Shown here one piece after another: positions 43,284 through 64,000 of a DNA stretch of 64,000 bases. The DNA comes from Candidatus Omnitrophota bacterium (GTDB taxonomy: Bacteria > Omnitrophota > Gorgyraeia > 2-01-FULL-45-10). Location: NCBI GenBank assembly GCA_028715345.1, contig JAQUSB010000001.1, forward strand, positions 40,047-104,046, read 5' to 3'. The translations under genes were made by a program, and so were the position numbers. Every line of letters starts with the position of its first letter. The first letter of the stretch is position 1. A model generated the notes under the pieces. That model was not told the origin of the DNA. It was given only the letters and a program-made list of their open reading frames with translations, and made no database searches.

Positions 43284-43601
43284 TTATTTATACCAGTCGG
43301 ACTTCCCGGGCTGAACTGTGGTGCTTGTAGCGGCCGTCGTACCCGTAGTCGTCGACGTGGAGGCAGTAGTCGACGTCGAAGCCGACGTCGGCGCGGAAGT
43401 CGGCTGCACCAGCGTATCTCCCGACGAACCGTTAGAAGCCGACGAAGACCCGGACTGCGCCTGCGACGGGTACCACCCTTTATTCTGGAGGAACGGGTAC
43501 CAATCTTTCTGTTCGGCGTAAGCGTAACCCGTCACGGCCGGTAATAAGATCAGCGCTGCCATTATAGCGCGCGGCATAACACCTCTATACATATTTTTCA
43601 T
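43284..43601 (-). CDS. small secreted Ser/Thr-rich protein with repeated (K/S)DWY motifs
   Basis: 105 aa with signal peptide, KDWYP and KGWYP motifs, a low-complexity STSASTSTT tract and KSDWYK. Confidence 0.35.
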   Translation of the reverse strand: MKNMYRGVMPRAIMAALILLPAVTGYAYAEQKDWYPFLQNKGWYPSQAQSGSSSASNGSSGDTLVQPTSAPTSASTSTTASTSTTTGTTAATSTTVQPGKSDWYK

Positions 43602-44472: not shown

Positions 44473-44536
44473 GATCCCCTCCCCTTGAAGTTTAATTATA
44501 TCATAAATTTATTTCGGGTGTGATATAATATGAAAT

Positions 44537-45346: not shown

Positions 45347-45373
45347 AATATCCGCCCTTTAAGGAAAGATCGC

Positions 45374-48118: not shown

Positions 48119-48205
48119 GCGGTCCTTTCAAAGTTAGCTAATTGTATCATCTGCGCAGAAAAATAGGAAGCAAAACCTTACGGCTGTGCTATAATTATTT
48201 CACAT

Positions 48206-50277: not shown

Positions 50278-51064
50278 CCTTATCGAAATAACCTTGGGCC
50301 TCTTTTGCGTTGCCGGCCTTATTGTATAACAGGCCTATGGCGTAATACGCCTCGCCGAAGTTGGAATCCAATTCTATCGCCTTCCGGAAAGCGGCGATAG
50401 CTTCGGTATCTTTGCCCAAAGCACTGTAAGAATTGCCCATATCATAGTAAGCGTAGGCAAATTTCGGGTTGATCCTGAGGGTCCTCTGAAATAATATTAT
50501 CGCGTCCTCGTGCTGGTTCAGCTTACCGTATACCTGACCCAATTTATAGTTTGCATAGTAATCGTTCTGGTTTATCAGGATGGATTTTTTGAAATAAGCT
50601 ACGGCCTCTTCCGGTTTATCCATCGATAAGAAAAGATCCCCGAGGCTGTTATACGGCTGAAAAAATCCCGGGTCTATCTCTATCGCTTTCTGGAAAGACG
50701 CTATCGCCTTCTCGGTATTGCCCAATGCGAGGTATGCCTCGCCCATATTCTGATAAGCGGCGGGGTATCCGGGATTCAACTGGATCGCCTTTTGAAAGCA
50801 TTCCACCGCAGCCTGCGGCTGGCGCAGGACCAGATATATGCACCCTTTTTTGAAATACGCTATCGGGTAATCCGGCTCAAGGGCGATGGCCTTGTCGAAT
50901 TCGGCAAGCGCCGATCCGAAATTACTCTTGTCGTAATATTCTTTGCCTGCGATCAAGTGGTCTTCCGACGTCTCTTCGGCGAAAAGGCCCGCGCAAAATA
51001 CCGGAAGCGAAGCGAAGATCGCTATCGCGATAAGGCCGGCTATGATCATCTTAATATTCTTCAT
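50228..51064 (-). CDS. secreted TPR-repeat protein
   Basis: 278 aa with a signal peptide and seven or more TPR units (AxxxxGxAYxxLG...). Confidence 0.6.
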   Translation of the reverse strand: MKNIKMIIAGLIAIAIFASLPVFCAGLFAEETSEDHLIAGKEYYDKSNFGSALAEFDKAIALEPDYPIAYFKKGCIYLVLRQPQAAVECFQKAIQLNPGYPAAYQNMGEAYLALGNTEKAIASFQKAIEIDPGFFQPYNSLGDLFLSMDKPEEAVAYFKKSILINQNDYYANYKLGQVYGKLNQHEDAIILFQRTLRINPKFAYAYYDMGNSYSALGKDTEAIAAFRKAIELDSNFGEAYYAIGLLYNKAGNAKEAQGYFDKAKKIFDEKGMDKGAAV

Positions 51065-51148: not shown

Positions 51149-51907
51149 TTACATTCTATCTATTTTATTGCCGCTTGGCGTAATACGTAAGTCTAACCCG
51201 ATATTTTCGAGTTCTTCGTTGATCTCAGGTATCGTTTTCGGGGTTTTTTGTTCGATGAACCATTTCCAGCGGCCGTTCCTGTTCCAATCACCGGGTAGGA
51301 CCATATTGACCATCATATGCGCCCAGTCCACCTGCGGAGGATTAGGCCAATTCGAAAGGTCCAGCCAGAATTGTTCTTTGTCGCGCGCGGAAAGCAAATT
51401 ATAAAACGGGCTTTGAGCCCGAAAAACATCCTCGAAATACGGCCTTACGGGTTTACGGGGGATCGTTATCTGCCATCTGAATACCGCCATCATGCAGCGG
51501 GCGCCGGCCAGATCTGCCTTCATTATATCAAGCGCCACCAATGTGTACGCGCATAAAAATTTCCGGAAACGCAATTCTTCGCCGCCGTATAATTCGGACA
51601 CACAAGCTTTATGCGGATCCTCCGCCTGCCGGCTTTCCGTGATCCCATATTTTTCTTTAAGGGCAGAAACGGCGCTTAAAGCTTTGCCCGGATCCTTTGA
51701 AAAATAAGAGAGCCGGGCGGTATCATAATTACCGGCCACATTTATATAATAACCGCTGACGGCATCAAGCCATTCACTGCCATACAGAAAAGGCCGCATG
51801 TCGTCTATCGTCTTATAGTAATTTTCGAATTTTTTATTGCCGGGGGCCTTCAGGTAGAACCTTCCGAACAGGTCTTCCGTAGTCAGCTTTGTGAGATCGG
51901 GGAACAT
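51149..51907 (-). CDS. hypothetical protein
   Basis: 252 aa with no TM helix and no signal peptide. Contains an ELYGGEE motif. No family assigned. Confidence 0.4.
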   Translation of the reverse strand: MFPDLTKLTTEDLFGRFYLKAPGNKKFENYYKTIDDMRPFLYGSEWLDAVSGYYINVAGNYDTARLSYFSKDPGKALSAVSALKEKYGITESRQAEDPHKACVSELYGGEELRFRKFLCAYTLVALDIMKADLAGARCMMAVFRWQITIPRKPVRPYFEDVFRAQSPFYNLLSARDKEQFWLDLSNWPNPPQVDWAHMMVNMVLPGDWNRNGRWKWFIEQKTPKTIPEINEELENIGLDLRITPSGNKIDRM

Positions 51908-51912
51908 ATTCT

Positions 51913-53583
51913 TTATATGCTTCCCCGCCCTTCTATTATATCCATCATCTTCCGGGCGTTAGGAAAATTCGGCTTGATCGATAATGCCTTTTTAAGATTT
52001 TCCCCGGCCATTGCGTAATTTCCCTGCGATAGGTATATACTTGCGATATTGCTGTATGCCTCCGCGTAATCGGGCCGAAGTTCGAGGGCTTTTTTATATT
52101 CTGCCATGGCGTCCTTTTCCCGGCCCATGGCGCTATAGACATTGCCGAAATTAAGACGGAGCCGGGCATTGTTCGGCGAATACTTTATGGTATTTTTAAA
52201 GAACGTTACTCCGTCCTTCCAGTCCTTATTCCGCTCGAACGTCAGGATACCGAAGAAAAGGAATAAGCCCGCCAATAAAAAGACGACCGCCGGTTTGTAA
52301 AAAAAACGCGCGCAGGCAAGGCCTATCATCATATATATGCCTATAGCCGGAAGATAAAGCCAGTGCTCGGATATGAAACTGTTTATAGGGACTATGTTAG
52401 AGACCGGCAGAAGGCCGATAAAAAACCATAGGGATGCGAAAAAAACTTTCCGCGATCTTTTGCGGGCTATATAGACCATGACGGCTATTACCGACATCGC
52501 GGCTAAAGCTATGAATACTTCCGGGTTAGCGAAAGATGTCGCCACCTTTACCTGCCGTTCCATGTGCAGCCCGAACGGCAGCGCCAAAAGGAACAGGTAG
52601 ACGCATACGGCCTTAAATGTGGTGAGCATCCTTATATATAGATTGAATTTACCCATTATCGTGGACGGGGCCGCCGCGGAGAAATCGAGGATCGTCTTCC
52701 TCATAATGACATAGGCTAAAAAGACCACTAAATAAGGAATGACCAATGAATAGAGCTTCGCGCGGTCCTTTTGGCCGGAGAAAACGAATATATACAGAAT
52801 AAAAAATAAAGGCAGTATCATCCCTATCTCTTTCGAGAGCACAGAGGCGGCGTAAAATAAGATAGACAGCGCGTACGGGACATAGCGGATCCCTTTATTT
52901 TCCGTCGATGCTTCGGCCGCGCGCAGGAAAAGGATGAACGAGATGAGGAAGAAGAGCAGATAAAGAGGGTCCGCCCTCCCGGCAACGTATGTGACGGCTT
53001 CCGTATTTATGGGATGGATGCCGAACAGAGAAGCCGTCACGAAAGCGACAAGCCAGTTCTTGAAGATCTTCAACGAAAGTATGTATAAAAATACCGCGCA
53101 TAGTGCGTGCAATAATATATTCGTCAGGTGAAAACCCAGCGGCAGGCTCCCCCACAGGAAACGGTCGATCATGTATGATAGTTCCTGGATGGGCCGGTAA
53201 AAATTATTTATATTACCGCTTGTAGCGGCGAGGTATGTTTTGAATATGCGCGCCGCATTATTGAAACTATTTATGGCGGTATTGTCCCTTATCAGGAACT
53301 CGTCGTCCCAAATGAAATCATTATTCAGGGCGCTCGAGTAAGCCGCAAGGACAAGCACGGCTATTACGATGACCGATAAGACGTGCACCCATTTTTTAAT
53401 GACCGGCGCCTTCTCATCCTCCTCCTGCCGCAGGCGCTGCCCGGAGGGTTTCCCTTCCCGCAGGCCCATTTTACGGAGATACTTCGAGACGCTCCTCTCA
53501 CGCAAACCCAATTCATCGGCGATTTGCCTGGCGGTTTTAGTCCCTATGTTCTTCGCTATATATTCTTCCTGTGACTGTTTCAT
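51913..53583 (-). CDS. fusion protein: N-terminal HTH (sigma-70 region-4-like) + GT-C-like polytopic membrane domain + C-terminal TPR repeats
   Basis: 556 aa. N-terminus TARQIADELGLRERSVSKYLRKMG is an HTH. A block of ~11 TM helices carries NDFIWDDEFLI and FYRPI motifs (TMTC/DUF1736-like). Three C-terminal TPR units follow. Confidence 0.5.
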   Translation of the reverse strand: MKQSQEEYIAKNIGTKTARQIADELGLRERSVSKYLRKMGLREGKPSGQRLRQEEDEKAPVIKKWVHVLSVIVIAVLVLAAYSSALNNDFIWDDEFLIRDNTAINSFNNAARIFKTYLAATSGNINNFYRPIQELSYMIDRFLWGSLPLGFHLTNILLHALCAVFLYILSLKIFKNWLVAFVTASLFGIHPINTEAVTYVAGRADPLYLLFFLISFILFLRAAEASTENKGIRYVPYALSILFYAASVLSKEIGMILPLFFILYIFVFSGQKDRAKLYSLVIPYLVVFLAYVIMRKTILDFSAAAPSTIMGKFNLYIRMLTTFKAVCVYLFLLALPFGLHMERQVKVATSFANPEVFIALAAMSVIAVMVYIARKRSRKVFFASLWFFIGLLPVSNIVPINSFISEHWLYLPAIGIYMMIGLACARFFYKPAVVFLLAGLFLFFGILTFERNKDWKDGVTFFKNTIKYSPNNARLRLNFGNVYSAMGREKDAMAEYKKALELRPDYAEAYSNIASIYLSQGNYAMAGENLKKALSIKPNFPNARKMMDIIEGRGSI

Positions 53584-53601: not shown

Positions 53602-54189
53602 CTATCGTCTCGGCGGCTGGGGCGGCGGTGAAGGCGGCCGCGGCGGCTGGGGCGGCGGCGTCTGAGGCTGAGCCGGAGGCATCTGGCGCTGCATAGCCGA
53701 AACCCTCTGGGCCTCTTCTACGACTTCCATTTGCCGCGCCACCTCTTTAGCCTGGTATGCATTTATCTGGATGTACACCTTATCCAAAAGCCCTTTCAGC
53801 GCGGCATCGTCGAGGTCTTCTATATTCACTTCTTCCGCCCCGCGGGGATATGTATATCTATCTTCTCCGTCCGAGCCTTTCTTTTTCTTAAGCTCCGGGA
53901 TGCCCTTCAGGACCTCCTCGTTATTTCCGGTCTCCTCTTTTATGATCTTTAACATATCCTCCCTCGCCATAGCAGGCGCCGATCCGTTAAAAGGCGGCAG
54001 GGATGCTTTCTGCCCGGGGACGGAGGAAACTGCCGGAGAAGGCCGCGCCGGAATATTTTTTCCGGTAAATTTTTTCCACATTCTCGGGATCAAACCTTCA
54101 CCGGCCTGCGCCGACGCTGTAAGAGGCGTCAGGATGATCACCAGAGATATTATCAAAATTTTTGATAGATCGTTCACGATTTTACGCAT
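53602..54189 (-). CDS. secreted protein with C-terminal Pro-rich tail
   Basis: 195 aa with a signal peptide. C-terminus reads PPAQPQTPPPQPPRPPSPPPQPPRR. Confidence 0.4.
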   Translation of the reverse strand: MRKIVNDLSKILIISLVIILTPLTASAQAGEGLIPRMWKKFTGKNIPARPSPAVSSVPGQKASLPPFNGSAPAMAREDMLKIIKEETGNNEEVLKGIPELKKKKGSDGEDRYTYPRGAEEVNIEDLDDAALKGLLDKVYIQINAYQAKEVARQMEVVEEAQRVSAMQRQMPPAQPQTPPPQPPRPPSPPPQPPRR

Positions 54190-54195
54190 ATGCTT

Positions 54196-54864
54196 TTATC
54201 CGGGATATCCTACAGTCTGTGCCAGAATTATCTTCTGGCCGGAGCGCAGCTTCATAGCTTTGGCCAATGCCGGCCTGTCCACCAAACCGCGCACTACCGT
54301 AGCAAGGCCGGCCGAGGCGCAGTAAAGATACACGTTCTGGCTTACGAAACCGGTATCTGTGGCCACGTAGAAATCCGCGTCCGCCGCGGCCATCTTACCC
54401 ATCTTCGAAACGTCCGCCACAAATATGAGATTTACAGGAGCGTCCTTTACGAAAGGCTGCGCGCCGCTGGCGGCCCTGAGGTCATCGTTCGATACCTTGA
54501 CCAGCGTGTTGGTTTTGGCATCATACAGATACAGGCCGCTTGCCATTGCCGCGTAAATATCTATCTCCTGCATATTTCTTGCCGAAGGCGCCGTCCTTAA
54601 ACCGGTAGCCGGCCGGCTGATGCCGTTAGCGGCCCAGAGCATATCCGACATCACCTGTAAGGGAATATCTTTGGAGCTGAAAGATCTCTGCGACATCCTC
54701 TCTTTCAGCGCCTGCATCAAAGGTTTCCCGCCTTGCGTCTCGGGATCGGGCAGTTTTATCGATCCCGCGCTCTCCGCCGATACGGCCGCAGAATAGGCCG
54801 CCAAGATTGCCAGCGTGAAACAAGCCGTTAAAATTTTTCTCACCTGCATATCATCCTCCTGCAT
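54196..54864 (-). CDS. secreted nitroreductase-superfamily (SagB-type dehydrogenase-like) flavoprotein
   Basis: 222 aa with a Sec signal peptide. Nitroreductase-fold motifs ERMSQRSFS, MLWAANGISRP and TAPSARNMQEIDIY are present. Confidence 0.55.
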   Translation of the reverse strand: MQEDDMQVRKILTACFTLAILAAYSAAVSAESAGSIKLPDPETQGGKPLMQALKERMSQRSFSSKDIPLQVMSDMLWAANGISRPATGLRTAPSARNMQEIDIYAAMASGLYLYDAKTNTLVKVSNDDLRAASGAQPFVKDAPVNLIFVADVSKMGKMAAADADFYVATDTGFVSQNVYLYCASAGLATVVRGLVDRPALAKAMKLRSGQKIILAQTVGYPG

Positions 54865-55580
54865 TTACCGGATATGTCGGCGATAGCGCCGACGGGACAA
54901 AAATACCTGCACCAGAATTTCGGTATAAAGAACGCCGCCGATAAGATGGCCGCCGCGATAAAAACGGCCGCCCAGGCCCAGGCATACCACCCGTTCCCGA
55001 AATATTTTACCCACGCCGACGAGGTAACGGTCAGAAAATAGACGGCGGCAACAGCAATAAGTATAACATAGGAAGACACGGATAACCAGGCCGCGGGCTT
55101 TAAATGCTTCTTCGATATAGCTACCTGCGCCTCCTGGAACGAGCCTAAAGGACAAAGGCGCGCGCACCAGAATTTGCCGGACAGGTTCAGCCCTACGAAC
55201 GCGCCGAAGAGAAAAGTCCTCGATATCCCCCATGGACATTTATCCGGGCAGGCCCTGCAGAATACATACGGCACTTTAAAATAGCAGCGGAATACCGGCA
55301 GCAGGATCACCGGGAGAAATATGAGGCCGCCGATAAATTTCAGCCAGAAGTACGGCAGTAATTTTTGGTTTACCCATTTTATTATAAGAAGGGCGAACGA
55401 CGCGGCGCAAATTATTTTGATAAATAACGAGAACGGCGGCCGCCAGAAAAAATAAAGCAGGCGCAGGCTGCTCTCCGAATAGGCCATACTTGCGAAGAAT
55501 ATACCTATGAGGGCGAAGAGCCAGAAGAAAACGGAATTTTTTATACCGCTTATGATATTGCCTTTGCTCAAGGTCGTCAT
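54840..55580 (-). CDS. integral-membrane polyferredoxin-like 4Fe-4S-binding protein (NapH/COG0348-like)
   Basis: 246 aa with six TM helices. Repeated Cys motifs FCRACPDKCPWG, WCARLCPLGS and WCRYFCPVGA lie in cytoplasmic loops. Confidence 0.55.
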   Translation of the reverse strand: MTTLSKGNIISGIKNSVFFWLFALIGIFFASMAYSESSLRLLYFFWRPPFSLFIKIICAASFALLIIKWVNQKLLPYFWLKFIGGLIFLPVILLPVFRCYFKVPYVFCRACPDKCPWGISRTFLFGAFVGLNLSGKFWCARLCPLGSFQEAQVAISKKHLKPAAWLSVSSYVILIAVAAVYFLTVTSSAWVKYFGNGWYAWAWAAVFIAAAILSAAFFIPKFWCRYFCPVGAIADISGKCRRMICR

Positions 55581-55581
55581 C

Positions 55582-57846
55582 TTATTTATAGATTATATCA
55601 CGACTGCGCAAAAATATTAAAACAACCGCGAGGTTAAGGAACGCAACGGCTAAACAGCTCTGGACCAGGCCCAGTACGGGGATCATAAATACACCCGTCA
55701 GGGCCGCGCCCAGGCAGGAGCCTAACAGATCGAGCCCGTAAGTCAGCCCTGCCGAAGAGCCGGCAGCCGCCTCTTTTTTGCCGGCCAGGTATATCCTGTT
55801 GGACAGGGCAAATAGCGCCCCTCCCTGCAACCCTGCTAATAAGGACAGCGCGGGAAAGAAAATGGCGGCGCCGAACCAATGGGCGTAGCCGGTCTTGGCG
55901 GCCGAGATCAGGTTGACCGCGGCCGGGAATATGAATGCATAGACTGCGATGCTTAATTGAACGACGAGAAATTTTATCTTCGATCTCCCGGGGCCGGCAT
56001 CGGCCCTCGATTCATACCATCCGGCCAGGGCGAGCCCGAGCATGAAAAACGTAAATAACATGCCGAGCTTGAAATACAGATACCCGTATATGACCTGGAA
56101 CGAGAATAAGAGCATTATCTGTATCGCAGCCTGGCTGAATCCCATCACGAAAACGCCGGCTAACGCGGGCTTGGCGGAATTCCCGGTATTCTTTAAGCCC
56201 AATAGCATAATAAAAATGCCGGCCAATGCAAATACCGACCAGATGATGCCGCCGGAAGCCGTTCTTAAAACATTCGTCATCAGCGAATCGCGGAATTGCG
56301 ATGCCCAATAGATGATGGCGTAATAATACGACGACGGCCTGAAGTCGAAATTGATCCTCGCTCCGGATCTTTTAAGCGCGTCTTCCGTGTAGCGGACCTT
56401 GTCGGCAGACATCCTGGCAAACAGATAATCCTCCCGCATATATTGCAGATCGAGCTGCCGCTCCTCCGCTCTCCGCATCAGCAATTTGTAGTCATAAGTA
56501 AGCCCTCCGGGGCTTTCGGATGCCAGGAAATACGCGGTATTGCCGGGGATGACTTTCACGTCCGCAAATTCCTTCTGCAGGGTCGCGCGGACCGAACTTA
56601 GGTATTCGGACATATCCGGATCTATATAGCTTTCGGAACCGCTCAGGCCGAAACTTATTATGCCCCCGTCCGTTAAAACATTTTTTGCTTCGCGGAAAAA
56701 GTCGCGGGTGTAAAACCGGTTCAACTGCGCCGTATACGGGTCTCCGAGGTCTATTATGATGCAGTCATATTTATTTCCGGTCGTCTTGATAAAATAGCGG
56801 CCGTCCATATTTTTGATCGAGACCCTGCCGTCGTCGAGGGCTTTCGTGTATCCGCGCGCGAGGAAGCTGCGCGCAAGCCTGACCAGTTCCGGGTCGAGCT
56901 CGACGTAATCGATATGCCTGACCGGATATTTCAATATTTCATCGACGAGGCCGCCTATCCCCCCGCCTATCAGAAGTATGTTCTTCGGGTCTTTATGTTC
57001 CAAAAGGCAGAAATGGACCGCTTCTTCGGAGATCTTTTTATCCGGCACACTGCAAAACCTTATCCCGTTATTAATGAAAGATATCTGCCCGTCCCTTTTT
57101 AACGTGACCAGGTTGGCGTAAACGGAGTTCCTCGCGTCCAGGACTTCGTAGCCCTTCCACTGCTTTTTGAATGAAAATATCTCCGCGTTTTTCCATCCCT
57201 GCAACATCCATACCAGGCCCAGCGAAATTATGATCACGGCCGCGCCGGCTCGCGCCATTCTTTTTTGCGGCGCCTCGGCAAAGAAGAAAGCCGCGGCCGC
57301 ATTGAGCAGGCTGAGCACGGACATTATTTCGAAGGAATTAAAATATCTCAACAGGACGAGGCTTACGATGCCACCGCCCAGGATAGACCCGAACGCTTCC
57401 ATGGCATAAACCCTGCCGATGCCCGACGCTTTATCTTTTATTTCGTATATCCGGCACGCCAGTATGAACATGAAACCCATGACGGCGCATAACGGGATCA
57501 GGACAGCGATACTTGAAAATGCCAGGATATGAAAAGGAAGGATCTGCCCGGGGTTGATACCTAAGATCGGCCTTATCAGCCTGATGAGCAATATCCCGAA
57601 CGGCAGGAATATACTCAGGAATATCTGCAGCAGCACGAAAACGAGGTTCTTCCGTTTTATTCTGTCGGCAAGCTTTCTCAATAATAACGCGCCGACGGCG
57701 CCCGACAGCATCCAGCCGGCCAGTATTATACCGACGGAAAGCTCGTCCCCGGAAAAGACGATAAGGAATTCCCGGATGAAGACTATCTGGGAAGCCATCG
57801 CGGTGGCTCCGAGGCATATTATGGAGAAGAGTAAAGGCTTTTTCAT
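55582..57846 (-). CDS. spermidine/spermine synthase-like domain flanked by N- and C-terminal multi-helix membrane domains
   Basis: 754 aa. N-terminal ~8 TM helices, then a central aminopropyltransferase-like SAM-binding fold (LLIGGGIGGL...DYVELDPELV...IIIDLGDP), then ~8 C-terminal TM helices. Confidence 0.65.
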   Translation of the reverse strand: MKKPLLFSIICLGATAMASQIVFIREFLIVFSGDELSVGIILAGWMLSGAVGALLLRKLADRIKRKNLVFVLLQIFLSIFLPFGILLIRLIRPILGINPGQILPFHILAFSSIAVLIPLCAVMGFMFILACRIYEIKDKASGIGRVYAMEAFGSILGGGIVSLVLLRYFNSFEIMSVLSLLNAAAAFFFAEAPQKRMARAGAAVIIISLGLVWMLQGWKNAEIFSFKKQWKGYEVLDARNSVYANLVTLKRDGQISFINNGIRFCSVPDKKISEEAVHFCLLEHKDPKNILLIGGGIGGLVDEILKYPVRHIDYVELDPELVRLARSFLARGYTKALDDGRVSIKNMDGRYFIKTTGNKYDCIIIDLGDPYTAQLNRFYTRDFFREAKNVLTDGGIISFGLSGSESYIDPDMSEYLSSVRATLQKEFADVKVIPGNTAYFLASESPGGLTYDYKLLMRRAEERQLDLQYMREDYLFARMSADKVRYTEDALKRSGARINFDFRPSSYYYAIIYWASQFRDSLMTNVLRTASGGIIWSVFALAGIFIMLLGLKNTGNSAKPALAGVFVMGFSQAAIQIMLLFSFQVIYGYLYFKLGMLFTFFMLGLALAGWYESRADAGPGRSKIKFLVVQLSIAVYAFIFPAAVNLISAAKTGYAHWFGAAIFFPALSLLAGLQGGALFALSNRIYLAGKKEAAAGSSAGLTYGLDLLGSCLGAALTGVFMIPVLGLVQSCLAVAFLNLAVVLIFLRSRDIIYK

Positions 57847-57851
57847 TGTTT

Positions 57852-58502
57852 TTAGCCCAATATGAAAATTACGCCGAACAGTATCAGAACTGCCGCGCAG
57901 ATCGACCTGAATATCATGTTAGCTGCCGGAGACATGGCAAATTTTTTCGGGAATACATTTAATACGCCCGTTATCCCGGCGGCAAGGATCAAACCTGAGA
58001 AAAAAGTGCCCAACCCGAACGCGAGACCGTAAACGGCGCCCTGCAGGAATGTTTTAGATACGAGCGCGATCTCCGTCAAGAGCCCTATTAAAGGAGGGCA
58101 CGGGCTCACTCCTACCATAAAACCGAAGACGAAGGAGCCGCCGCCATGCAAAACCCGGTGGACGCGCCCCGAACAGGCTTCTCCCATCTTTTGCCTGTAG
58201 AAAAAGATATATATCCCGAAGAGGATACTTATAACGCCCGCGGCGGGTCTAAAATAAAAAGAGATGTTCGAGCCGGTAAATTGGCGCAATATTACGCCGG
58301 ACAATCCCGCTAAAAACCCGAGCGCCGTGTAGGCGAGGACTCTCCCGGATAAAAATACGGCGATCACAAAAAGTACTTTTTTATAGCCCTCTTTTATGCC
58401 GGCGCCGAGGGCAAGAGTTATCGGAAGGCAGTAAAGAAGGCACGGCCCGCTGATCCCGAGGATAAAACCTATGGAAAAAACCTGTAATGCAGGAATGAGC
58501 AT
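57852..58502 (-). CDS. ccdA: CcdA/DsbD-family thiol-disulfide transmembrane electron transporter
   Basis: 216 aa with six TM helices. Conserved Cys in TM1 (ISGPCLLYCLP) and TM4 (GVSPCPPLIG). Confidence 0.6.
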   Translation of the reverse strand: MLIPALQVFSIGFILGISGPCLLYCLPITLALGAGIKEGYKKVLFVIAVFLSGRVLAYTALGFLAGLSGVILRQFTGSNISFYFRPAAGVISILFGIYIFFYRQKMGEACSGRVHRVLHGGGSFVFGFMVGVSPCPPLIGLLTEIALVSKTFLQGAVYGLAFGLGTFFSGLILAAGITGVLNVFPKKFAMSPAANMIFRSICAAVLILFGVIFILG

Positions 58503-59613
58503 CTACTTTTCCCAGCGCCCCGCGACCGGATAACCGCAATAAGCGCATTTGCCGTCTTTTATATTTACTTCCCTTACCCTGTAACCTGTGCGGGAGACTA
58601 AAAGTTTCCCGCAATTCGGGCAATACGTATTCTCGTACACGTTGACAAAAGGGACGTTGCCGATATAGACATACTTTAACCCGACGCTCTTTGCGATCCT
58701 GTATGCCTCTTCCAATTTCTCGATCGGAGTGGGCGGAAGATTGGCCAATTTGAACGCAGGCGTAAAACGGCTGAAATGCAGAGGCACGTCATCGCCGACA
58801 TTTTCCTTTATCCATACGCACATTTTCCGTATCTCTTCGGGGCTGTCGTTCTGCCCGGGGATGACTAAGTTCGTTATCTCGAGCCAGACGCCTTCTTTTT
58901 TTTACCGTCTTGATCGTATCGAGGACCGGCTGCAGTTCGGCGAACGCCCCCATCTTCCGGTAAAAAGCTTCATTGAAACCCTTCAGGTCGATATTCACCG
59001 CGTCCATATATTTGAGCAGCTCTTTAAGCGGCGCTTCATTTATGTAACCGCATGAATGCATCGTATTCTTTATCCCCTTCTGGCGGGCGAGCTTAGCGAT
59101 ATCGAGCATATACTCATAAAAAACGGTCGGCTCGGTGTAAGTGTACGCGATGTATTTACAATCGTTCTTTACGGCAGCTTCGACGATCTCTTCGGGCGGG
59201 GTGAAACGGCTCTTCACTTCGTCGGGCTTCGCCTGCGAGATCTGCCAGTTCTGGCAAAAGAGGCAGCGCATATTGCACCCCGCCGCCGCTATAGAAAACG
59301 CCTTTTCCCCCGGAGCGACGTGAAAGAACGGCTTCTTCTCTATAGGGTCGATGTGCAGAGCTACCGGCTTGCCGTATCCCAAAGCGTAAAGAGTGCCGCC
59401 CCTGTTTTCGCGCGCCGTGCAGAAACCGCGCGCGCCGTCGCGGATAACGCATTTGCGCGGGCATAGTTTGCACTGTATGACGGTGTCCTTGAATTTTTCC
59501 CAGTAACTCGCGACATGAGGCCCATCCTGTTTCCCTGCCGGGGCAGCCGGCGCGACGGCAAAAGTAACCGCGCATAGCGCCGCGACGAATATGAGAGCAG
59601 GTTTCGTTCTCAT
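58503..59613 (-). pseudogene. AmmeMemoRadiSam-type radical SAM enzyme (PflA/COG1180 family) disrupted by a +1 frameshift in an A8 tract
   Basis: Two overlapping ORFs, 58789..59613 and 58503..58823, together cover one protein. N-terminal part carries YWEKF...CKLCPRKCVIRDGARGFC...GCNMRCLFCQNWQIS. C-terminal part carries HFSRFTP...PPTP...CPNCG...CAYCGYPVAGRW. The frame changes at plus-strand T8 (58896-58903); reading A7 restores ...TVKKEGVWLEITNLVIPGQND.... Confidence 0.65.
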
Positions 59614-60212
59614 TACTTTACGAAGAACATCAGGACGGGGGCGATTAGGAGGGCATATAAACTTATCACGGGATATATGAATGACATCAGAGCGGCAAAT
59701 AAAGACACGAGCGGAAAGACTAAAAGTTTCTTCTTTTCTTTATCGATATAGCGACGCGTGACCGTTTCGCTTATCAGCCTGTAGCCTTTTGCCGCGTATG
59801 CCCAGTTAAAATAATTGAATACGCCCACTACGAACATATTCGAGGCGAGGAACGCTTCTGCGACCGGATCCGTCGGGAACTTGTTGACCAGAGACGAGGA
59901 GAACGGGATGAGCGCTATGAACATCAGGGTCAAGACGCTTATCCATAAATGGGCGCGGTCGGTGTGTTGTATAAAATGGGCCTGGTTATGGTGCACGAAC
60001 CAGAGGTAACCCAGCGTAATGAAGACTATCATGTAAACGATGATGTCCTGGAAACAGCCGGTGAGGAACTGCTCGATGCTTACGGTCCTGAATACGCTGA
60101 TATCATGCGGGACTTTTATATCCAGCACCAATATGGTCATGACGATGGCAAATATGCCGTCCGTCAGGGCGCTTATCCTATGCGGTAAAACTTTATTCTG
60201 CGTTACGTTCAT
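59613..60212 (-). CDS. DUF1211/TMEM175-family membrane protein
   Basis: 199 aa. N-terminal RISALTDGIFAIVMTILVLDIKVP is the TMEM175 signature helix. The stop overlaps the radical SAM start as TAATG. Confidence 0.6.
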   Translation of the reverse strand: MNVTQNKVLPHRISALTDGIFAIVMTILVLDIKVPHDISVFRTVSIEQFLTGCFQDIIVYMIVFITLGYLWFVHHNQAHFIQHTDRAHLWISVLTLMFIALIPFSSSLVNKFPTDPVAEAFLASNMFVVGVFNYFNWAYAAKGYRLISETVTRRYIDKEKKKLLVFPLVSLFAALMSFIYPVISLYALLIAPVLMFFVK

Positions 60213-60244: not shown

Positions 60245-61870
60245 TTATTGCCCGGCGCCTTCCGCGTATTTTTCGTATCCGGCCAGCGCCATGCCGAGCG
60301 AGGCCTTGGCCCAGTTCAGCGGGACTATGGGCGACGGCAAATAATATTTTTGCCCGTCCACGACCACCGTATTTATGCTCTCCGGCAGCAACCAAGGCTG
60401 GGCGGTGTTGCCGTCCGCTGTAATAGAACCGCCCGTGATCTGGCCGAGCGCGCGCTTAATGTGGACCGCAGCTAAGTATATATCCTGTTCGCGGAGCTTC
60501 GGGTCTTTTGTTATCCCGGCGAGATGCAGCCGCGCCATTGCCAGCAGGCTGTCGAAAAACCACTGCGCTTCGGTATCGGGGATAAGCCCGCCCAGCCGGC
60601 CCAGGAAAGCGTCTTTCGAAGACGTGTCCGCCGTAAGGGACGCGCTGTCTTTGCCGGAAGGCTTTATCCAGAAATTCCCGCCCTGGTAGCTGTCGTTGTT
60701 ATACCGCAGGACGCCCGCCGGACGTTTGAGCGTTTCCACTATAAGGAGCGCTTTTCTCATCTCTTCTTCGCTCAACCCCTCGAGCGGCGAAGGCTGTATC
60801 AAAGTTATTAGCGCTGCGTCTGCCCGACGAAAATGTATGTCTTCCGGCTTGTAATCCGGCGACTCTCCCCCGAGGAACAGCTGGTATCTGACGGTCTCCA
60901 GGCCTTTATTTACAAGAAACGTTAAATTGCCGTCCGACCAGGATCTCTTTATATTTTCGTTCTCTTTTTTGAGCATAGGAAAAAACTTTTTGCGCAAAGC
61001 GTCCGCCGGCTTCTCTTTATTTTTATACAAAAGATCGCACCAGGCTTCGAGAGAGCGCGCGGCGAGGCCTATACTGGAGGTATTTTTACGGGTTATCTCT
61101 TCCCATGAGCCTGCGTCCTCATAATCGTAGAAAGATATGGCTGAAAGGAACGACGGGTATAAGCTCAAGGCTTTGAATCTTTTCTCGGTCAGGTCGTCAG
61201 GCGTCAGGAGGCCTTTTGTGAATGCCTCTGCCAAAGCCGTAAAAAATATCCCGTGAGCGTCGATCTGCCTGTGATTCCAATGCTGCGGCTTTCCGTCTAT
61301 TATGACATCGTCCAGGGCGGGCGAACTGCCGTCGAACCGTATGTGAGGCACCGCCATTTCGTCCTGCGCGATCGCGGGATCCGCTATCACACCGGAAAAA
61401 CGTTTATACTGCGCGTCCGTAGAATAGTAATCCCATAATGCCAGGATAAGGCGCCGCGCGTCATTCCGGCGGGCCGGGTCTTCGAGAAGCGAATAATATA
61501 CCCATACATTGTCCCTGACCCATATGGCGTCGTAGTGCGTCGCGTCTTTTTCTTTCTCGGCGCTGCGCGAGGCGGCAGGAGCGAAACCCCTGTCATTAAG
61601 TTTTATGTAAAGGCTGTCCTTCAATGCCCGGCGTATATCGGATAAAGCTTTCTTGTCTATTTTGGCCTTTACCCAATCCGCGACTTTGTCGTTGAACACG
61701 GTTATGAATTCACCTTCGGGCGAAAGGACGGTCCGGCAGGGCTTTGCTGAAAGGAGATATTGTTTTACGTTATCGTATCCGGCGGTGCCCCGGTTTTCCT
61801 GGGCGAAGGCGGCGCCGGAGGCCAGAAGTAAACCTATAGTCAGACTTATTACGCGTTTATTCGCCGTCAT
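60245..61870 (-). CDS. secreted glycoside hydrolase family 15 (glucoamylase-like) protein
   Basis: 541 aa with a signal peptide. IWVRDNVW matches the W.RD motif and GSWEE the catalytic acid region of the GH15 (alpha/alpha)6 barrel. Confidence 0.65.
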
Positions 61871-62325
61871 TTAAGCAGATCGCCGCGGCCGACTTCGTAA
61901 TCGCCGATCTGGCGCTCGTATTCTTCCGTCATCATGCTCGAAGATATTATGAAATCTGCCGACGCGCGATTGCAGGCCGCCGGAATATTGTAAACGACCG
62001 CTATTCGTAAAAGCGCTTTAACGTCCACGTCATGAGGCTGGGGCTGCATGGGATCCCAGAAAAATATAAGGAAATCTATCTCGGAATTCGCTATCTTCGC
62101 GCCGACCTGCTGGTCTCCGCCCAGAGGGCCGCTTTTCAATTTATTGATCTTAAGCCCAAGTTCGCGCTCAAGTATGGCCCCCGTCGTCCCGGTAGCGATA
62201 AGTTCGTGTTTTGCCAGGGAACCTTTATTGAACTTTGCCCACTCGAGCAGGTCCTTCTTCTCATTATCATGCGCTATAAGAGCGATACGTTTTTTCACCG
62301 CCATCTTAATGGTCTTTGTCTGCAT
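61867..62325 (-). CDS. mgsA: methylglyoxal synthase
   Basis: 152 aa with [24 protein letters not shown] and FFWDP motifs. Confidence 0.85.
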
Positions 62326-62445
62326 CCGTCCTCCTTATCTTATTATTTGAAGTATGCCACAACCAACCGAAAAATACAAATTTATCGAGCCTTTGCGCGG
62401 GGTTTTGTATATAATCATATATAGGATAAAAGAAAGGATGCGGTT

Positions 62446-63156
62446 ATGCATAATTTTATCGGGGAATTATTCGGAACGATGGTATTGGTATTGCTCGGGG
62501 ACGGGGTGGTCGCGAATGTCCTCCTGAAAAAAAGTAAAGGCGAGAATTCCGGCTGGATGGTCATCGCCAGCGGGTGGGGCCTCGGCGTGGCTATAGCCGT
62601 TTACGTCGCCGGCTGGGTCAGCGGAGCGCACATCAACCCTGCCGTTACGCTGGGGTTCCTGGTGATCGGTAAAATAGCGCTGAAAGATGTGCCGTATTAT
62701 ATCGCGGGCCAATTGATAGGCGCTTTTCTGGGCGCGGTGATCGTATGGCTGGCGTACCTGCCGCACTGGAAAGTGACCGAAGATCCCGACAAGAAACTTT
62801 CGGTTTTCTGCACTATGCCCGCTGTGCGCAATTACAAAGCGAACCTTCTCTGCGAGATCATAGGCACCGCCATGCTCCTTATGGGCATACTCGGGATATT
62901 CAACGTCCACAATTCGATCGGCAGCGGCGTCGGGCCGTATCTGGTCGGCATACTCATATTCAGTATAGGGCTTTCCATAGGCGGCCCTACGGGTTACGCC
63001 ATAAACCCCGCGCGAGATCTTATGCCGCGCATCGCCCACGCGGTCCTCCCTATCCCCGGGAAACGCGATCCCGATTGGGCATATTCATGGGTACCTGTCG
63101 TCGGGCCGCTAATAGGCAGCGTCCTGGGCGCAGGACTTTATCACATTATATTTTGA
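62446..63156 (+). CDS. glpF: aquaglyceroporin / glycerol uptake facilitator (MIP family)
   Basis: 236 aa with the two MIP signature boxes SGAHINPAVT and NPARD. Confidence 0.85.
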   Translation: MHNFIGELFGTMVLVLLGDGVVANVLLKKSKGENSGWMVIASGWGLGVAIAVYVAGWVSGAHINPAVTLGFLVIGKIALKDVPYYIAGQLIGAFLGAVIVWLAYLPHWKVTEDPDKKLSVFCTMPAVRNYKANLLCEIIGTAMLLMGILGIFNVHNSIGSGVGPYLVGILIFSIGLSIGGPTGYAINPARDLMPRIAHAVLPIPGKRDPDWAYSWVPVVGPLIGSVLGAGLYHIIF

Positions 63157-63160
63157 GGGC

Positions 63161-64000
63161 TTACTTGTTTTTCGGCCGGGCGAGGAATGCGAACGACACG
63201 CACCATATGATCAGCGTTGCGACCGATGGGACGCCCCATTCGTCGAACGGGCCGAGATGGCCCACGGCCTGTGCCAGGAAAGCGAGCAAACTGCTCCACA
63301 TGAGGGCCTGGTAGGACAAAGAATTTCGCGGCAGGTCATCGAGATACAAAAATATCGGGAAGAATATCGAGAAGAAGACCGTATAGTGGTGCATTTCATT
63401 GACAGGCGAAGCCAATAACATCAGTATCGCGAAAAGCGAATACTCGAGCATTATCCGATTCGGCGATGACGGTCCTTTTTTCCGCCTGCTGACGAAAGCG
63501 AGCGCAACCAGCGCTATGCCGCTGAACGCCCGGACGCCCCACTTCACCCAAAAATTACCATAAGCCGCTAAATTGGTTTCGGTCTGGTAAAACCACCGCG
63601 TAAGCGTAGCGTAAAGGGATTGGTTGTCTGCGGATATCGGGGTGGCCAACTGTCCCCATATACGGCTATTTTTACCGGTGCTCGATACTGCCTGACTTAA
63701 AGTATTATGCCACTCATTTAAGAATAACCAATTCCTCTCCGGGCCGATCACCAAAGACGGGAAAGCCAGGGCGAAAAATAATATGCCCAGCGCGGCGGAT
63801 GCGACTATCTTCCATTCCCTTTTGACGATAAAGAACACTATGAGAAACGCCAGCGGGCTTGATTTCAGTACGACCGCGAAGGCAAAAAGAATTCCCGCCC
63901 AGACACCCCACCCTTTCATATACAGGTATAGTATTGCGACCGCAAAAAAAGCTACCATCACTCCGGTCTGGGCCCGCGTTATCGATTCCAGTATTGAAGG
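63161..64000 (-). CDS. polytopic membrane protein, DUF2029/GT87-like (partial; N-terminus beyond window end)
   Basis: Minus-strand ORF stays open through position 64000. More than eight TM helices. Weak resemblance to GT87/DUF2029 mannosyltransferase-type proteins. Confidence 0.4.
   Translation of the reverse strand, partial: PSILESITRAQTGVMVAFFAVAILYLYMKGWGVWAGILFAFAVVLKSSPLAFLIVFFIVKREWKIVASAALGILFFALAFPSLVIGPERNWLFLNEWHNTLSQAVSSTGKNSRIWGQLATPISADNQSLYATLTRWFYQTETNLAAYGNFWVKWGVRAFSGIALVALAFVSRRKKGPSSPNRIMLEYSLFAILMLLASPVNEMHHYTVFFSIFFPIFLYLDDLPRNSLSYQALMWSSLLAFLAQAVGHLGPFDEWGVPSVATLIIWCVSFAFLARPKNK

Follow-up and report, generated by a model that had tools for sequence, protein, structure and literature searches.

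A candidate extracytoplasmic radical SAM system of the AmmeMemoRadiSam type in Omnitrophota

Seven closely packed genes of a Candidatus Omnitrophota bacterium raise the question whether they form one envelope redox system, as a preliminary description proposed, and on which side of the membrane their radical SAM (rSAM) protein acts. The window, the whole stretch of DNA analysed, has 64,000 nt (GCA_028715345.1, contig JAQUSB010000001.1, positions 40,047-104,046 of the forward strand); the gene string occupies its positions 53602-60212. Reading of the sequence verified the coordinates, the minus strand of all open reading frames and the overlapping, abutting or short-gap junctions. The six family assignments made earlier all hold in HMM searches, including CcdA-like (PF13386) and nitroreductase (PF00881). 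The genes, with one downstream neighbour, are:

59613..60212, minus strand: TMEM175/DUF1211-like membrane protein; it opens the string (PF06736, 81 bits, 9e-23)
58503..59613, minus strand: AmmeMemoRadiSam-type rSAM with a +1 frameshift inside (TIGR04337); orthologues lie upstream of the SpeE-fusion gene
57852..58502, minus strand: CcdA-like six-helix DsbD_2 thiol-disulfide membrane protein (PF13386, 70.4 bits, cut-off 24.9, 2.5e-19)
55582..57846, minus strand: 754-aa, 14-helix MFS/SpeE-like protein, here called SpeE-fusion (AF2 model, hhalign, K+R counts, NF037959)
54840..55580, minus strand: six-helix NapH/NosR-like membrane polyferredoxin (PF12801 Fer4_5, 46.3 bits, cut-off 22, 4e-12)
54196..54864, minus strand: Sec-exported nitroreductase-fold flavoprotein, NTR (PF00881, 88.4 bits, 8e-25)
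53602..54189, minus strand: secreted protein whose C-terminus is Pro-rich; it ends the string (below every family cut-off)
51913..53583, minus strand: membrane protein with C-terminal TPR repeats (TPR families matched), 18 nt downstream of the string

The TMEM175 stop and the rSAM start overlap by 1 nt (TAATG), and the rSAM stop abuts the DsbD_2 start (TAGATG). Gaps of 5 nt and 1 nt separate the SpeE-fusion gene from DsbD_2 and from the polyferredoxin gene, respectively; the polyferredoxin and NTR frames overlap, and 6 nt lie between NTR and the Pro-rich gene. The TPR/membrane gene, weak homologues of which occur close to the system in loci L012, L093 and L095, may belong to the same transcription unit, and 32 nt upstream of the string there is a gene for an exported GH15-like protein; the unit may therefore exceed seven genes. 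Promoter and terminator scans yielded no more sites than shuffled sequence.

One possibility is that chance alone brought together these seven tightly packed genes for membrane and secreted proteins, tight junctions being common in compact genomes. We compared 82 related loci and scored rSAM adjacency in the 68 with enough upstream DNA. No homologue of the TMEM175-like or of the Pro-rich protein was found in any of the 82, and polyferredoxin and NTR are usually encoded elsewhere, alone. On the other hand, the rSAM gene lies directly upstream of a gene for a SpeE-fusion of about 750 aa in 59 of the 68, from different GTDB species, with median gaps of 0-6 nt. The five-gene operon occurs three times in two gene orders (window, L095, L022), and multiple independent fusions join four of the five families in single polypeptides. 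A chance string, very unlikely as an account of the whole, is thus already contradicted where the five core genes are concerned and holds for the TMEM175 and Pro-rich genes, which are local passengers, not conserved partners. The proposed envelope redox system is retained for rSAM, DsbD_2, SpeE-like protein, polyferredoxin and flavoprotein and loses the two passengers, which do not recur.

The preliminary description had named scattering of the genes in related genomes as evidence against it. Polyferredoxin, NTR, TMEM175 and Pro-rich genes, four of the seven, are indeed scattered or non-recurrent: the rSAM-SpeE core co-occurs, and the seven-gene set does not. Polyferredoxin and NTR stand beside the core in the three five-gene operons and are missing near it in most Omnitrophota, among them L005, the closest relative at 66% identity. 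Clustering of neighbours over the 82 loci found no further recurrent neighbour of the core.

Read mechanically, the rSAM gene falls into two frames (58789-59613 and 58503-58823). The description had the family right and took the gene for an intact single frame. The break is at a homopolymer:

58896..58903, minus strand: A8 (T8 on the plus strand), site of the rSAM +1 frameshift (sequence reading)

With A7 the gene would read ...TVKKEGVWLEITNLVIPGQNDSPEEIRKMCVWIKEN... (repair and translation). Deletion of one A gives a full-length protein of 369 aa, which scores 393.8 bits against TIGR04337 (cut-off 220), model positions 2-334 matching residues 36-368. It has CxxxCxxC in the form CNMRCLFC, an N-terminal four-cysteine motif and a C-terminal CxxC...CxxC ribbon. 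The frameshift in the assembly reflects a sequencing error or else an inactivation that happened very recently. It had been overlooked, as had the rSAM export signal and the predicted periplasmic place and degeneracy of the SpeE-like domain. The nearest characterised relatives are PflA and other glycyl-radical-enzyme activases (3c8f, E 3e-6; TIGR02493 matches), and action of the rSAM on a protein partner is therefore conceivable. Assignment as an activase was rejected, every activase cut-off being missed widely. Unlike PflA-type activases, the rSAM has the extra four-cysteine motif, the ribbon and an export signal, and no glycyl-radical enzyme is encoded nearby.

59533..59613, minus strand: rSAM N-terminal export signal MRTKPALIFVAALCAVTFAVAPAAPAG, Sec-type, no twin arginine, extending beyond the family model

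The TIGR04337 match begins at residue 36 and leaves this signal uncovered. Localisation was called by sequence rules together with hydropathy and charge counts of our own. With the exception of L065, whose N-terminus is ambiguous, every complete orthologue has a Sec- or Tat-type signal; these signals show a positively charged N-region, an AxA-type end and canonical S/T-R-R-x-F-L-K motifs; the L039 orthologue matches TIGR01409 TAT_signal_seq (19.4 bits, cut-off 16.7). Tat signals occur in about 22-30 of 150 rSAM family representatives. In neighbour-joining order, the Tat-bearing proteins stand mostly beside the Omnitrophota enzymes and the fusions, with few canonical members interspersed, and about 64 canonical cytosolic rSAMs form a separate bulk.

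The DsbD_2 gene lies between rSAM and SpeE-fusion in 37 loci, and DsbD_2 is fused to rSAM in P0250, P0252 and P0259. The TM1 motif GPCxxxCxP is present in every orthologue with its N-terminus retained, and the TM4 motif [S/F/T]PCxPL is invariant (39 of 39). Short rSAM signals accompany DsbD_2 in 37 of 37 loci (32 without RR, five with an ambiguous RR). Among loci without DsbD_2, long Tat-type signals are found in 17 of 23 (11 RR, 6 RK) and Sec-type signals in five. Outside Omnitrophota, the non-Tat locus L101 and the DsbD_2-rSAM fusions obey the same rule. The correlation is largely one clade split and therefore phylogenetically confounded. Like CcdA, DsbD_2 has six helices with conserved cysteines in PC motifs of TM1 and TM4, and the proposed logic would be the same, a Sec-exported apoprotein needing reduced cofactor-binding cysteines. 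However, it belongs to another Pfam family (PF13386, not PF02683), no thioredoxin-like periplasmic partner is encoded near it, and the proposed client is an Fe-S/rSAM protein.

The SpeE-fusion consists of an MFS-like half (TM1-6), TM7, a SpeE-fold domain, TM8 and a second MFS-like half (TM9-14), with pLDDT 87.8 and pTM 0.89 in the AF2 model. The SpeE fold is thus inserted between two membrane domains, as described earlier; these have seven helices each, a six-helix half plus a connecting helix, instead of about eight. The halves are homologous and in the same orientation (hhalign probability 98.3%, E 1e-14), and the N-terminal one matches MFS transporters in PDB. The whole protein exceeds the NF037959 cut-off (71.3 against 40 bits).

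56302..57159, minus strand: SpeE-fold domain, about residues 230-515 (Foldseek), predicted to be periplasmic and catalytically degenerate

Firstly, K+R counts alternate over the 14 loops, which together with the homologous halves predicts a periplasmic SpeE-like domain. Secondly, the proteins of L090, L091 and L092 point independently to the same topology: behind the cytoplasmic C-terminal end of the MFS part, a single helix leads into FMN_bind. As judged from sequence, the gene arrangement shows translational coupling of the rSAM to a 14-helix MFS-like protein that would display its SpeE-fold domain periplasmically.

A membrane SpeE could instead provide the envelope with spermidine or a modified polyamine, by synthesis or export, its neighbours being accessory or unrelated. 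PF01564 Spermine_synth (5e-30) and several polyamine aminopropyltransferase HMMs match, the fold is that of solved SpeE enzymes (1uir, 3anx, 6bq2; E 5e-13, TM 0.73-0.78), and the MFS relatives VMAT and NorA carry cationic amines. However, the protein scores below every equivalog cut-off (166 against 472, 118 against 260, 98.6 against 249.55), and conservation is lost at the Asp/Glu of GGG[DE]G, at the catalytic Tyr and at the first, catalytic Asp of DxxDP: GGG[DE]G is replaced by GGGIGG and Y-H-E by S-E-E, and the first Asp varies across the family. The domain, going by these motifs, is devoid of aminopropyltransferase catalytic residues; it is also predicted to face the periplasm, where to our knowledge dcSAM is not available. 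We consider a polyamine system highly improbable. Membrane aminopropyltransferases of the PRK03612 type and the 'fused MFS/spermidine synthase' of NF037959 likewise have an N-terminal seven-helix domain and a complete SpeE fold. The SpeE-fusion differs in having another, homologous six-helix half behind the SpeE domain, in its unconserved catalytic residues and in the coupling of its gene to rSAM.

The polyferredoxin has two CxxxCP (Fer4_5) motifs, PF12801 matching in two stretches, and aligns with the polyferredoxin part of the fusions L092_big (9e-15) and P0244 (2e-9). The NTR probably starts at M6 (54849), as in NCBI protein P0121; among solved structures it is closest to 8cqs and 3hoi ('FMN-dependent nitroreductase BF3017'), with E about 1e-44. 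Its homologues all have Sec signals; the family is very large, and members mostly stand alone. An exported nitroreductase fold had been described correctly, and the SagB-like label is dropped (TIGR03605, 52.8 bits, below the cut-off of 78.4) in favour of a plain nitroreductase fold close to BF3017.

The polyferredoxin is tied to the core mainly because domain fusions elsewhere join them. Single polypeptides combine DsbD_2, FMN_bind, Fer4_5 and rSAM (P0259), Spermine_synth, FMN_bind and Fer4_5 (P0394-98, P0402), or SpeE-fusion and polyferredoxin (L094), and the ApbE flavinylation motif Dxx[ST]GAT is kept in all fused FMN_bind domains. These comparisons show the same rSAM clade, across phyla, fused to or clustered with DsbD_2, NapH/NosR-like polyferredoxin and a predicted exported flavin domain.

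Alternatively, the hydrophobic N-terminus of the rSAM might anchor it to the inner face beside the MFS/SpeE-like protein, in a membrane-tethered complex with cytoplasmic chemistry. SAM and reductants are available there, the canonical members of the family reside in the cytosol, L090 and L092 encode rSAMs that lack a signal of their own, and no extracytoplasmic rSAM was found in the literature searched. Against this stand the charged N-regions, AxA-type ends, twin-arginine motifs and TIGR01409 score reported above. In P0269, P0296, P0265 and P0248 an N-terminal signal is followed by FMN_bind with its flavinylation motif, CBM_11 or a beta-propeller and then, with no more helices, rSAM; in P0244, P0249 and P0259 the chain passes through exactly one helix between the last cytoplasmic CxxxCP motif and rSAM. 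Finally, the partner SpeE-like domain is predicted to lie outside on two independent arguments. Such a cytoplasmic complex is unlikely in our judgement.

On balance we lean towards reading the window as the Omnitrophota version of a widespread extracytoplasmic AmmeMemoRadiSam-type rSAM system, of which, in agreement with the preliminary description, the searched literature holds no account. An rSAM with an export signal, encoded beside membrane proteins that could carry electrons, thiol reductant and perhaps SAM across the membrane, suggests rSAM chemistry outside the cytoplasm. The polyferredoxin would send electrons outward to an exported flavoprotein (the nitroreductase fold here, an ApbE-flavinylated FMN_bind domain elsewhere), which would reduce the rSAM cluster. 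DsbD_2, by analogy with CcdA in cytochrome c maturation, may keep the many ligand cysteines of the rSAM, which Sec exports unfolded, in reduced form and so make cluster formation possible; Tat lineages, exporting folded rSAM, would manage without it. The MFS-like protein would supply or dock what the rSAM needs outside. Our preferred guess is the cationic cofactor SAM, whose export by the MFS-like protein we infer, and which the degenerate, adenosyl-binding SpeE-like domain might hand over. The rSAM would finally abstract a hydrogen atom from some envelope or periplasmic target. We know of no precedent for extracytoplasmic SAM, for a periplasmic reductant of sufficiently low potential or for Fe-S assembly after Sec export, and this counts against the reading. 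Also counted against it are the frameshift in the window, the signal-less rSAMs mentioned above and the absence of polyferredoxin and NTR near the core in most Omnitrophota.

Envelope glycan genes surround the system in the window. They would suit another reading, in which a membrane lipid such as an isoprenoid or a quinone is bound or flipped by the MFS-like halves and presented to a periplasmic rSAM, and the SpeE-like domain is a docking or substrate platform. Burroughs and colleagues reportedly linked Memo-AMMECR1-rSAM contexts to aliphatic isoprenoid modification in 2019, which counts for it, as does a polyprenyl synthase gene near the big fusion protein in L091. The SpeE-like nucleotide motifs decay further in distant fusions (GQDGLL, VVRD, VQQD), which also weakens the SAM-binding idea. 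However, no lipid-pathway gene recurs beside the core in the 82 loci, the ribose-binding Glu and the adenine-binding Asp show no variation within Omnitrophota, and the source of periplasmic SAM is still unaccounted for. Lipid modification seems improbable to us.

The extracytoplasmic rSAM system that we favour resembles known modules in part. NapH-like modules are modular electron suppliers to extracytosolic enzymes with mostly unknown terminal reactions (Meheust et al. 2021, PMC8238504). In the NapH-like/DsbD-like systems and NosR, as here, a Fer4_5 CxxxCP polyferredoxin and a thiol-disulfide carrier feed an exported redox partner, and the likeness to NosR extends to flavinylation-motif FMN_bind and adjacent ApbE in the fused relatives. 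However, the proposed terminal enzyme would be an rSAM, which the main text of PMC8238504 does not mention; the exported flavin protein of the window has a nitroreductase fold in place of FMN_bind, and the window encodes no ApbE. The ferredoxin domain at the C-terminus of NapH and NosR is also missing from the polyferredoxin (TIGR02163, 23.9 bits, cut-off 213).

The AmmeMemoRadiSam system proper, known from comparative genomics and of unknown function, combines the TIGR04337 rSAM with Memo and AMMECR1. The present rSAM is far above the TIGR04337 cut-off. However, it falls in a clade of its own whose members have export signals, and its constant partner is the membrane/SpeE-like protein; Memo (MEMO1) and AMMECR1 are absent from the 64-kb window, as had been stated, and from beside the core in Omnitrophota loci. 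In L090, L092 and L101 (Myxococcota-like and other contigs), genes for rSAM, a Memo+AMMECR1 fusion and an MFS/SpeE-like+FMN_bind+polyferredoxin protein are clustered. Memo and AMMECR1 are thus present in related systems of other phyla, a point missed earlier, and there these proteins have signal peptides too.

Every long open reading frame (ORF) on the minus strand at 53602-60212 agrees with the preliminary description of this region, and the tight junctions that it reported between the seven genes are present: a 1-nt overlap, one abutment, gaps of 5, 1 and 6 nt, and one further overlap. HMM searches support its assignments to TMEM175/DUF1211, the AmmeMemoRadiSam-type radical SAM enzyme (rSAM), DsbD_2, the SpeE domain, the Fer4_5 membrane polyferredoxin and the nitroreductase fold. 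The label SagB-like was dropped, as the exported nitroreductase-fold protein scores 52.8 bits against the TIGR03605 cut-off of 78.4. The secreted Pro-rich protein is below the cut-off of every family. The window belongs to a Candidatus Omnitrophota MAG, and proteins identical (100%) to the SpeE-like fusion and the nitroreductase-fold protein exist at NCBI. Since a TPR/membrane gene follows only 18 nt downstream of the string, the transcription unit may exceed seven genes; a scan for promoters and terminators yielded no more sites than shuffled sequence.

Features within and around the gene string of the window
43585-51064 and 60245-63961, envelope and glycan genes (GT4, GT2, GT87-like, BNR protein, TPR proteins)
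51149-51907, minus strand, 252-aa ORF between TPR genes, no Pfam family at E<=0.001
58896-58903, minus strand, A8 run with a +1 frameshift in the rSAM gene; removal of one A gives a 369-aa protein
60245-61870, exported GH15-like protein

Genes for methylglyoxal synthase and an aquaporin also lie near the operon.

The rSAM gene, taken previously for a single ORF, consists of two ORFs split by the frameshift in the A8 run, and has no intact reading frame in the window. The repaired protein scores 393.8 bits with TIGR04337 (cut-off 220), and the unrepaired fragments score 232.9 and 108.3 bits separately. As the gene is otherwise perfectly conserved, the frameshift reflects either an error of sequencing or assembly or an inactivation that happened very recently, and the two origins are indistinguishable. 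Programmed frameshifting at the A8 run was rejected, because intact orthologues have no such run and a +1 shift would be required. In Ca. Tantalella remota (locus L058, 8468-9657) the orthologue is likewise in two fragments.

The seven genes do not co-occur across genomes as the set originally envisaged. We surveyed the loci of the 754-aa SpeE-like fusion, taking one genome per GTDB species (80 loci, nearly all in Omnitrophota), and searched their ORFs with the proteins of the window. The rSAM gene lies directly upstream of the fusion in 59 of the 68 loci whose upstream DNA extends for 1.4 kb or more, and DsbD_2 is inserted between the two in 37 loci; the median intergenic gaps of these genes are 2, 0 and 6 nt. 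In all-against-all clustering any other neighbour was limited to 11 loci at most, and its presence reflects ordinary synteny. As a route to the substrate pathway, clustering of conserved neighbours recovered nothing beyond local synteny (YggS, FeoB, thioredoxin reductase, response regulators). The TMEM175-like and Pro-rich proteins recur in none of the surveyed loci, and it is only for these two outer genes that chance juxtaposition is a valid explanation.

In the same survey the polyferredoxin and the nitroreductase-fold protein accompany the core in one locus, L022, where five contiguous, overlapping genes have an order different from that of the window (polyferredoxin, rSAM, DsbD_2, SpeE-like fusion, nitroreductase-fold protein). 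A second survey, anchored on the polyferredoxin, covered 19 metagenome loci. One of them, L095, has the same five-gene order as the window; in L094 the SpeE-like fusion and the polyferredoxin form a single 1016-aa ORF; and in L101 the pair of SpeE-like fusion and polyferredoxin faces DsbD_2, rSAM and a Memo+AMMECR1 fusion. In about 8 of the 19 loci the polyferredoxin stands alone beside housekeeping genes, with neighbours such as a DEAD-box helicase and a GH1 enzyme. The surveys thus define the conserved core as rSAM-(DsbD_2)-MFS/SpeE-like. Judged by gene order, the polyferredoxin and the nitroreductase-fold protein are occasional operon members, and the TMEM175-like and Pro-rich proteins are passengers.

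The TIGR04337 model begins at residue 36 of the window rSAM, and residues 1-35 begin with positive charge, continue with a hydrophobic stretch and end rich in Ala. Such an N-terminal extension is present in all complete orthologues adjacent to the SpeE-like fusion, except one unclear case (L065). The signal of the window protein lacks the RR pair and is of the Sec type, so the protein is not a candidate Tat substrate. The loci containing DsbD_2 (n=37) encode short Sec-type signals, often ending in AxA, without RR in 32 cases and with an ambiguous RR in five. Among the 23 loci lacking DsbD_2, 17 encode long signals of the twin-arginine type (11 with S/T-R-R-x-F-L-K, six with an R-K variant), five encode Sec-type signals and one is unclear. 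The Tat model TIGR01409 (cut-off 16.7 bits) recognizes the protein of L039 with 19.4 bits, and that of L068 is borderline (16.6). The association of signal type with DsbD_2 is mostly a single clade split, a weak point of the mechanism outlined below.

An exhaustive search of 1.84 billion representatives placed these proteins in the family at large. Among the best 150 members, about 64 have no extension and are canonical cytosolic enzymes, some of them fused to AMMECR1; Tat signals occur in 22-30, and 13 are fusions. A neighbour-joining ordering brings most of the exported and fused rSAMs, that of the window among them, into one group, which takes in a few canonical sequences and is separate from the majority of the cytosolic ones. 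Going by these signals, exported rSAMs are not peculiar to Omnitrophota. Pfam scans of long members of the rSAM and SpeE-like families revealed the following fusions.

Domain architectures of fused rSAM and SpeE-like proteins
DsbD_2+FMN_bind+Fer4_5x2+rSAM: P0259, one protein of 1055 aa
FMN_bind+Fer4_5x2+rSAM: P0244, P0249
DsbD_2+rSAM: P0250, P0252
signal+FMN_bind+rSAM: P0269, P0296
signal+CBM_11+rSAM: P0265, 681 aa
signal+beta-propeller (Reg_prop/PorZ-like)+rSAM: P0248, 919 aa
Spermine_synth+FMN_bind+Fer4_5: P0394-98, P0402, about 1200 aa

Each of the separate proteins of the window aligns to the matching segment of these fusions. Comparison of proteins and loci shows the five families (rSAM, DsbD_2, SpeE-like fusion, polyferredoxin, nitroreductase-fold protein) to form what is predicted to be one system. 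In the fusions of polyferredoxin with rSAM a single helix lies between the last CxxxCP motif and the rSAM domain; in NapH and NosR this last motif is cytoplasmic. By prediction, the rSAM and the SpeE-like domain both lie on the periplasmic side. An alternative is a membrane-tethered complex with the rSAM in the cytoplasm. We know of no precedent for periplasmic SAM, for SAM export or for Fe-S cluster assembly outside the cytoplasm. The export signals and fusions considered, the evidence partly favours radical SAM chemistry outside the cytoplasm. The CBM_11 and beta-propeller fusions of the candidate exported rSAMs hint at a target at the cell surface or associated with polysaccharide.

The architecture of the SpeE-like fusion differs from the one proposed previously, in which the SpeE-like fold was embedded between two domains of about eight helices each. 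An AlphaFold2 model built with 26 homologues (pLDDT 87.8, pTM 0.89) shows a central domain and 14 membrane helices. The first six helices and helices 9-14 are homologous (hhalign, residues 2-191 and 558-747, probability 98.3%, E 1e-14), so that the protein consists of two six-helix halves, between which helix 7, the SpeE-fold domain and helix 8 are inserted. MFS transporters with 14 helices have their extra helix pair at this same position. The protein scores 71.3 bits with the 'fused MFS/spermidine synthase' model NF037959 (subfamily cut-off 40) and 28.4 bits with Pfam MFS_1, below the cut-off of 33.4. The N-terminal half modelled alone (pLDDT 92.7) finds almost exclusively MFS proteins among the top 50 PDB matches of Foldseek (probability about 1.0, TM 0.5-0.6), with weak E-values of 0.03-0.2; the best of these weak matches are VMAT, NorA, SLCO2A1, PepT and QacA.

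The average number of K+R per loop in the alignment alternates (1.9/0/3.4/1.2/2.4/0.7/3.1 and 2.8/0/3.5/0.65/2.8/0/1.0), with the rich loops on the same side in both halves, as in MFS proteins whose halves share one orientation. The two termini are thereby assigned to the inside and the SpeE-fold domain to the outside. Relatives that continue into a NosR-like module allow this topology to be checked independently: a single helix connects their K/R-rich C-terminus to FMN_bind with the ApbE flavinylation motif, and FMN_bind is an extracytosolic domain type (PMC8238504).

The SpeE fold itself is well recognized (PF01564, 104.8 bits; Foldseek matches 1uir, 3anx and 6bq2, E 5e-13, TM 0.73-0.78), as would be expected of a true polyamine enzyme. 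However, the catalytic and dcSAM-selecting residues are not conserved: among 26 homologues the acidic residue of GGG[DE]G is replaced (GGG[I/A/V/S/F]), Y-H-E becomes [S/A/C/R]-E-E with loss of the Tyr, and the first Asp of DxxDP varies (D/N/H/S/Y/R). The scores also miss the aminopropyltransferase equivalog cut-offs (NF002956, 166 against 472; NF002010, 118.3 against 260; TIGR00417, 98.6 against 249.55). A canonical polyamine synthase was rejected because the catalytic residues are missing; as far as its residues tell, the SpeE-like domain is no ordinary enzyme. Within Omnitrophota the Glu that binds ribose and the Asp that binds adenine do not vary. In distant fusions the nucleotide motifs decay, which weakens the proposal of SAM binding.

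DsbD_2 belongs to the CcdA/DsbD group (PF13386, 70.4 bits, cut-off 24.9). In 39 sequences GPCxxxCxP in TM1 is kept wherever the N-terminus is retained, and [S/F/T]PCxPL in TM4 is invariant. Most orthologues have an additional Cys-x-Cys in the K/R-rich cytoplasmic loop before TM4 (residues ~105-112 of the protein at 57852-58502), which may be a metal or redox relay site. The polyferredoxin has two Fer4_5 stretches with CxxxCP (PF12801, 46.3 bits, cut-off 22) and falls short of the NapH and NosR families (TIGR02163, 23.9 against 213; NF046105, 18.3 against 1000). It ends just past the second CxxxCP, without the C-terminal 2x[4Fe-4S] domain and without FMN_bind. Both FMN_bind with Dxx[ST]GAT and ApbE are absent from the window, whereas both are present in the fused relatives.

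The nitroreductase-fold protein (54196-54864, about 218 aa) has a signal peptide. Among solved structures it comes nearest to 8cqs and 3hoi, which are nitroreductase-like, and the structure of a close homologue, BF3017, is that of an FMN enzyme. A SagB-type peptide dehydrogenase was rejected, given the score below the cut-off and no cyclodehydratase nearby. The family is very large and highly conserved, with at least 8000 matches, many of them 63-70% identical; a Sec signal is present in each of the members inspected. In three unrelated neighbourhoods (L085, L086, L088) the gene stands alone. How a Sec-exported FMN enzyme acquires its flavin is a separate question.

The window enzyme shares the rSAM family of AmmeMemoRadiSam by HMM score, but differs in that the partners Memo and AMMECR1 are absent. 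Their absence, reported earlier, was borne out by phmmer with the Memo+AMMECR1 proteins of L090 and L092, which found no match in the 64-kb window; the window thus does not encode a complete AmmeMemoRadiSam system. Signal-less Memo of the cytosolic type occurs downstream of the core, at 1-7 kb, in 3 of 82 loci, all from Omnitrophota, and is probably unrelated to the putative exported system. On two other contigs a large SpeE-like/FMN_bind/polyferredoxin protein is found beside rSAM and a Memo+AMMECR1 fusion with its own signal peptide. In L090, from a Myxococcota MAG, ApbE is also adjacent to the cluster.

Memo homologues in the surveyed loci
L015 8444-9271; L016 5437-6258; L037 11092-11916: cytosolic-type Memo
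L090 6429-7976; L092 10126-11643; L101 7632-9269: Memo+AMMECR1 fusion with an N-terminal signal peptide or signal anchor

These fusions suggest that whole AmmeMemoRadiSam systems may be extracytoplasmic in some Myxococcota-like and other bacteria.

A possible mechanism can be outlined. The polyferredoxin would pass electrons outward to an exported flavoprotein, which would reduce the rSAM cluster; the nitroreductase-fold protein would fill this place in the window instead of FMN_bind. DsbD_2, given its CcdA hallmark cysteines, may keep the approximately 11 cysteines of the Sec-exported apo-rSAM reduced for cluster formation, and the Tat lineages, having no DsbD_2, would export the enzyme as a folded holoenzyme. 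The MFS-like protein would provide what is missing outside, most economically SAM, which is a cation like the substrates of the nearest structural relatives of the MFS-like half. The adenosyl-binding remnant of the SpeE fold could then hand SAM to the rSAM. Another possibility is that the MFS part presents a lipid; Burroughs and co-workers are said to have tied Memo-AMMECR1-rSAM contexts to isoprenoid modification in 2019. Returning to SAM as the cargo, it is quite possible, if not quite probable, that this is the first radical SAM system outside the cytoplasm, with an enzyme exported by Tat, or by Sec with CcdA-assisted cluster loading, a polyferredoxin-flavin wire and SAM supplied by an MFS/SpeE exporter; the same reasoning would cover exported Memo+AMMECR1 systems in other phyla.

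To our knowledge, radical SAM enzymes are regarded as confined to the cytoplasm, since their chemistry depends on SAM, on a reductant of very low potential and on Fe-S clusters that are sensitive to oxygen. The existence of a large clade with Sec or Tat signals, fused to trans-membrane carriers of electrons and thiols, implies that radical SAM chemistry in the envelope is possible. If so, SAM export would be required and, in the Sec lineages, also extracytoplasmic Fe-S cluster assembly. It would also provide a concrete handle on AmmeMemoRadiSam and an envelope context for the enigmatic Memo and AMMECR1 proteins; their homologues in humans, MEMO1 and AMMECR1, are linked to disease and obscure in their biochemistry. 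The system would mark a phylum-wide envelope function in Omnitrophota, for which we know of no cultured model organism.

The claim that the system is undescribed stood up to full-text literature searches, which gave no exported rSAM and no association of rSAM with SpeE-like proteins or polyferredoxins. Searches on periplasmic or extracytoplasmic radical SAM, on AmmeMemoRadiSam function and on links between spermidine synthase, MFS and NosR found nothing relevant; one Tat paper naming radical SAM lists only a neighbouring gene. The closest similarity is in the wiring of NapH-like/DsbD-like extracytosolic electron-transfer systems (Meheust et al., PMC8238504), described there as modular and mostly of unknown terminal function; the main text goes without mention of radical SAM. 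Family membership, the NapH-like wiring and the negative literature searches together point to an extracytosolic electron-transfer module with an AmmeMemoRadiSam-type rSAM as a candidate terminal enzyme, a role that may extend to some orphan NapH-like modules.

Finally, small ORFs of 62-95 aa start with a Tat signal or a membrane helix and continue with SD[HR]EA.[FW]Y, which is normally the first strand of the rSAM domain.

Occurrences of SD[HR]EA.[FW]Y apart from the rSAM domain
L090 6131-6418 and 11594-11800: small ORFs
L092 8743-8967 and 9941-10129: small ORFs
L091 8001-11867: C-terminus of the product

The small ORFs resemble detached N-termini and occur in clusters where the rSAM lacks a signal; they might be explained by Tat hitch-hiking or by strand complementation.
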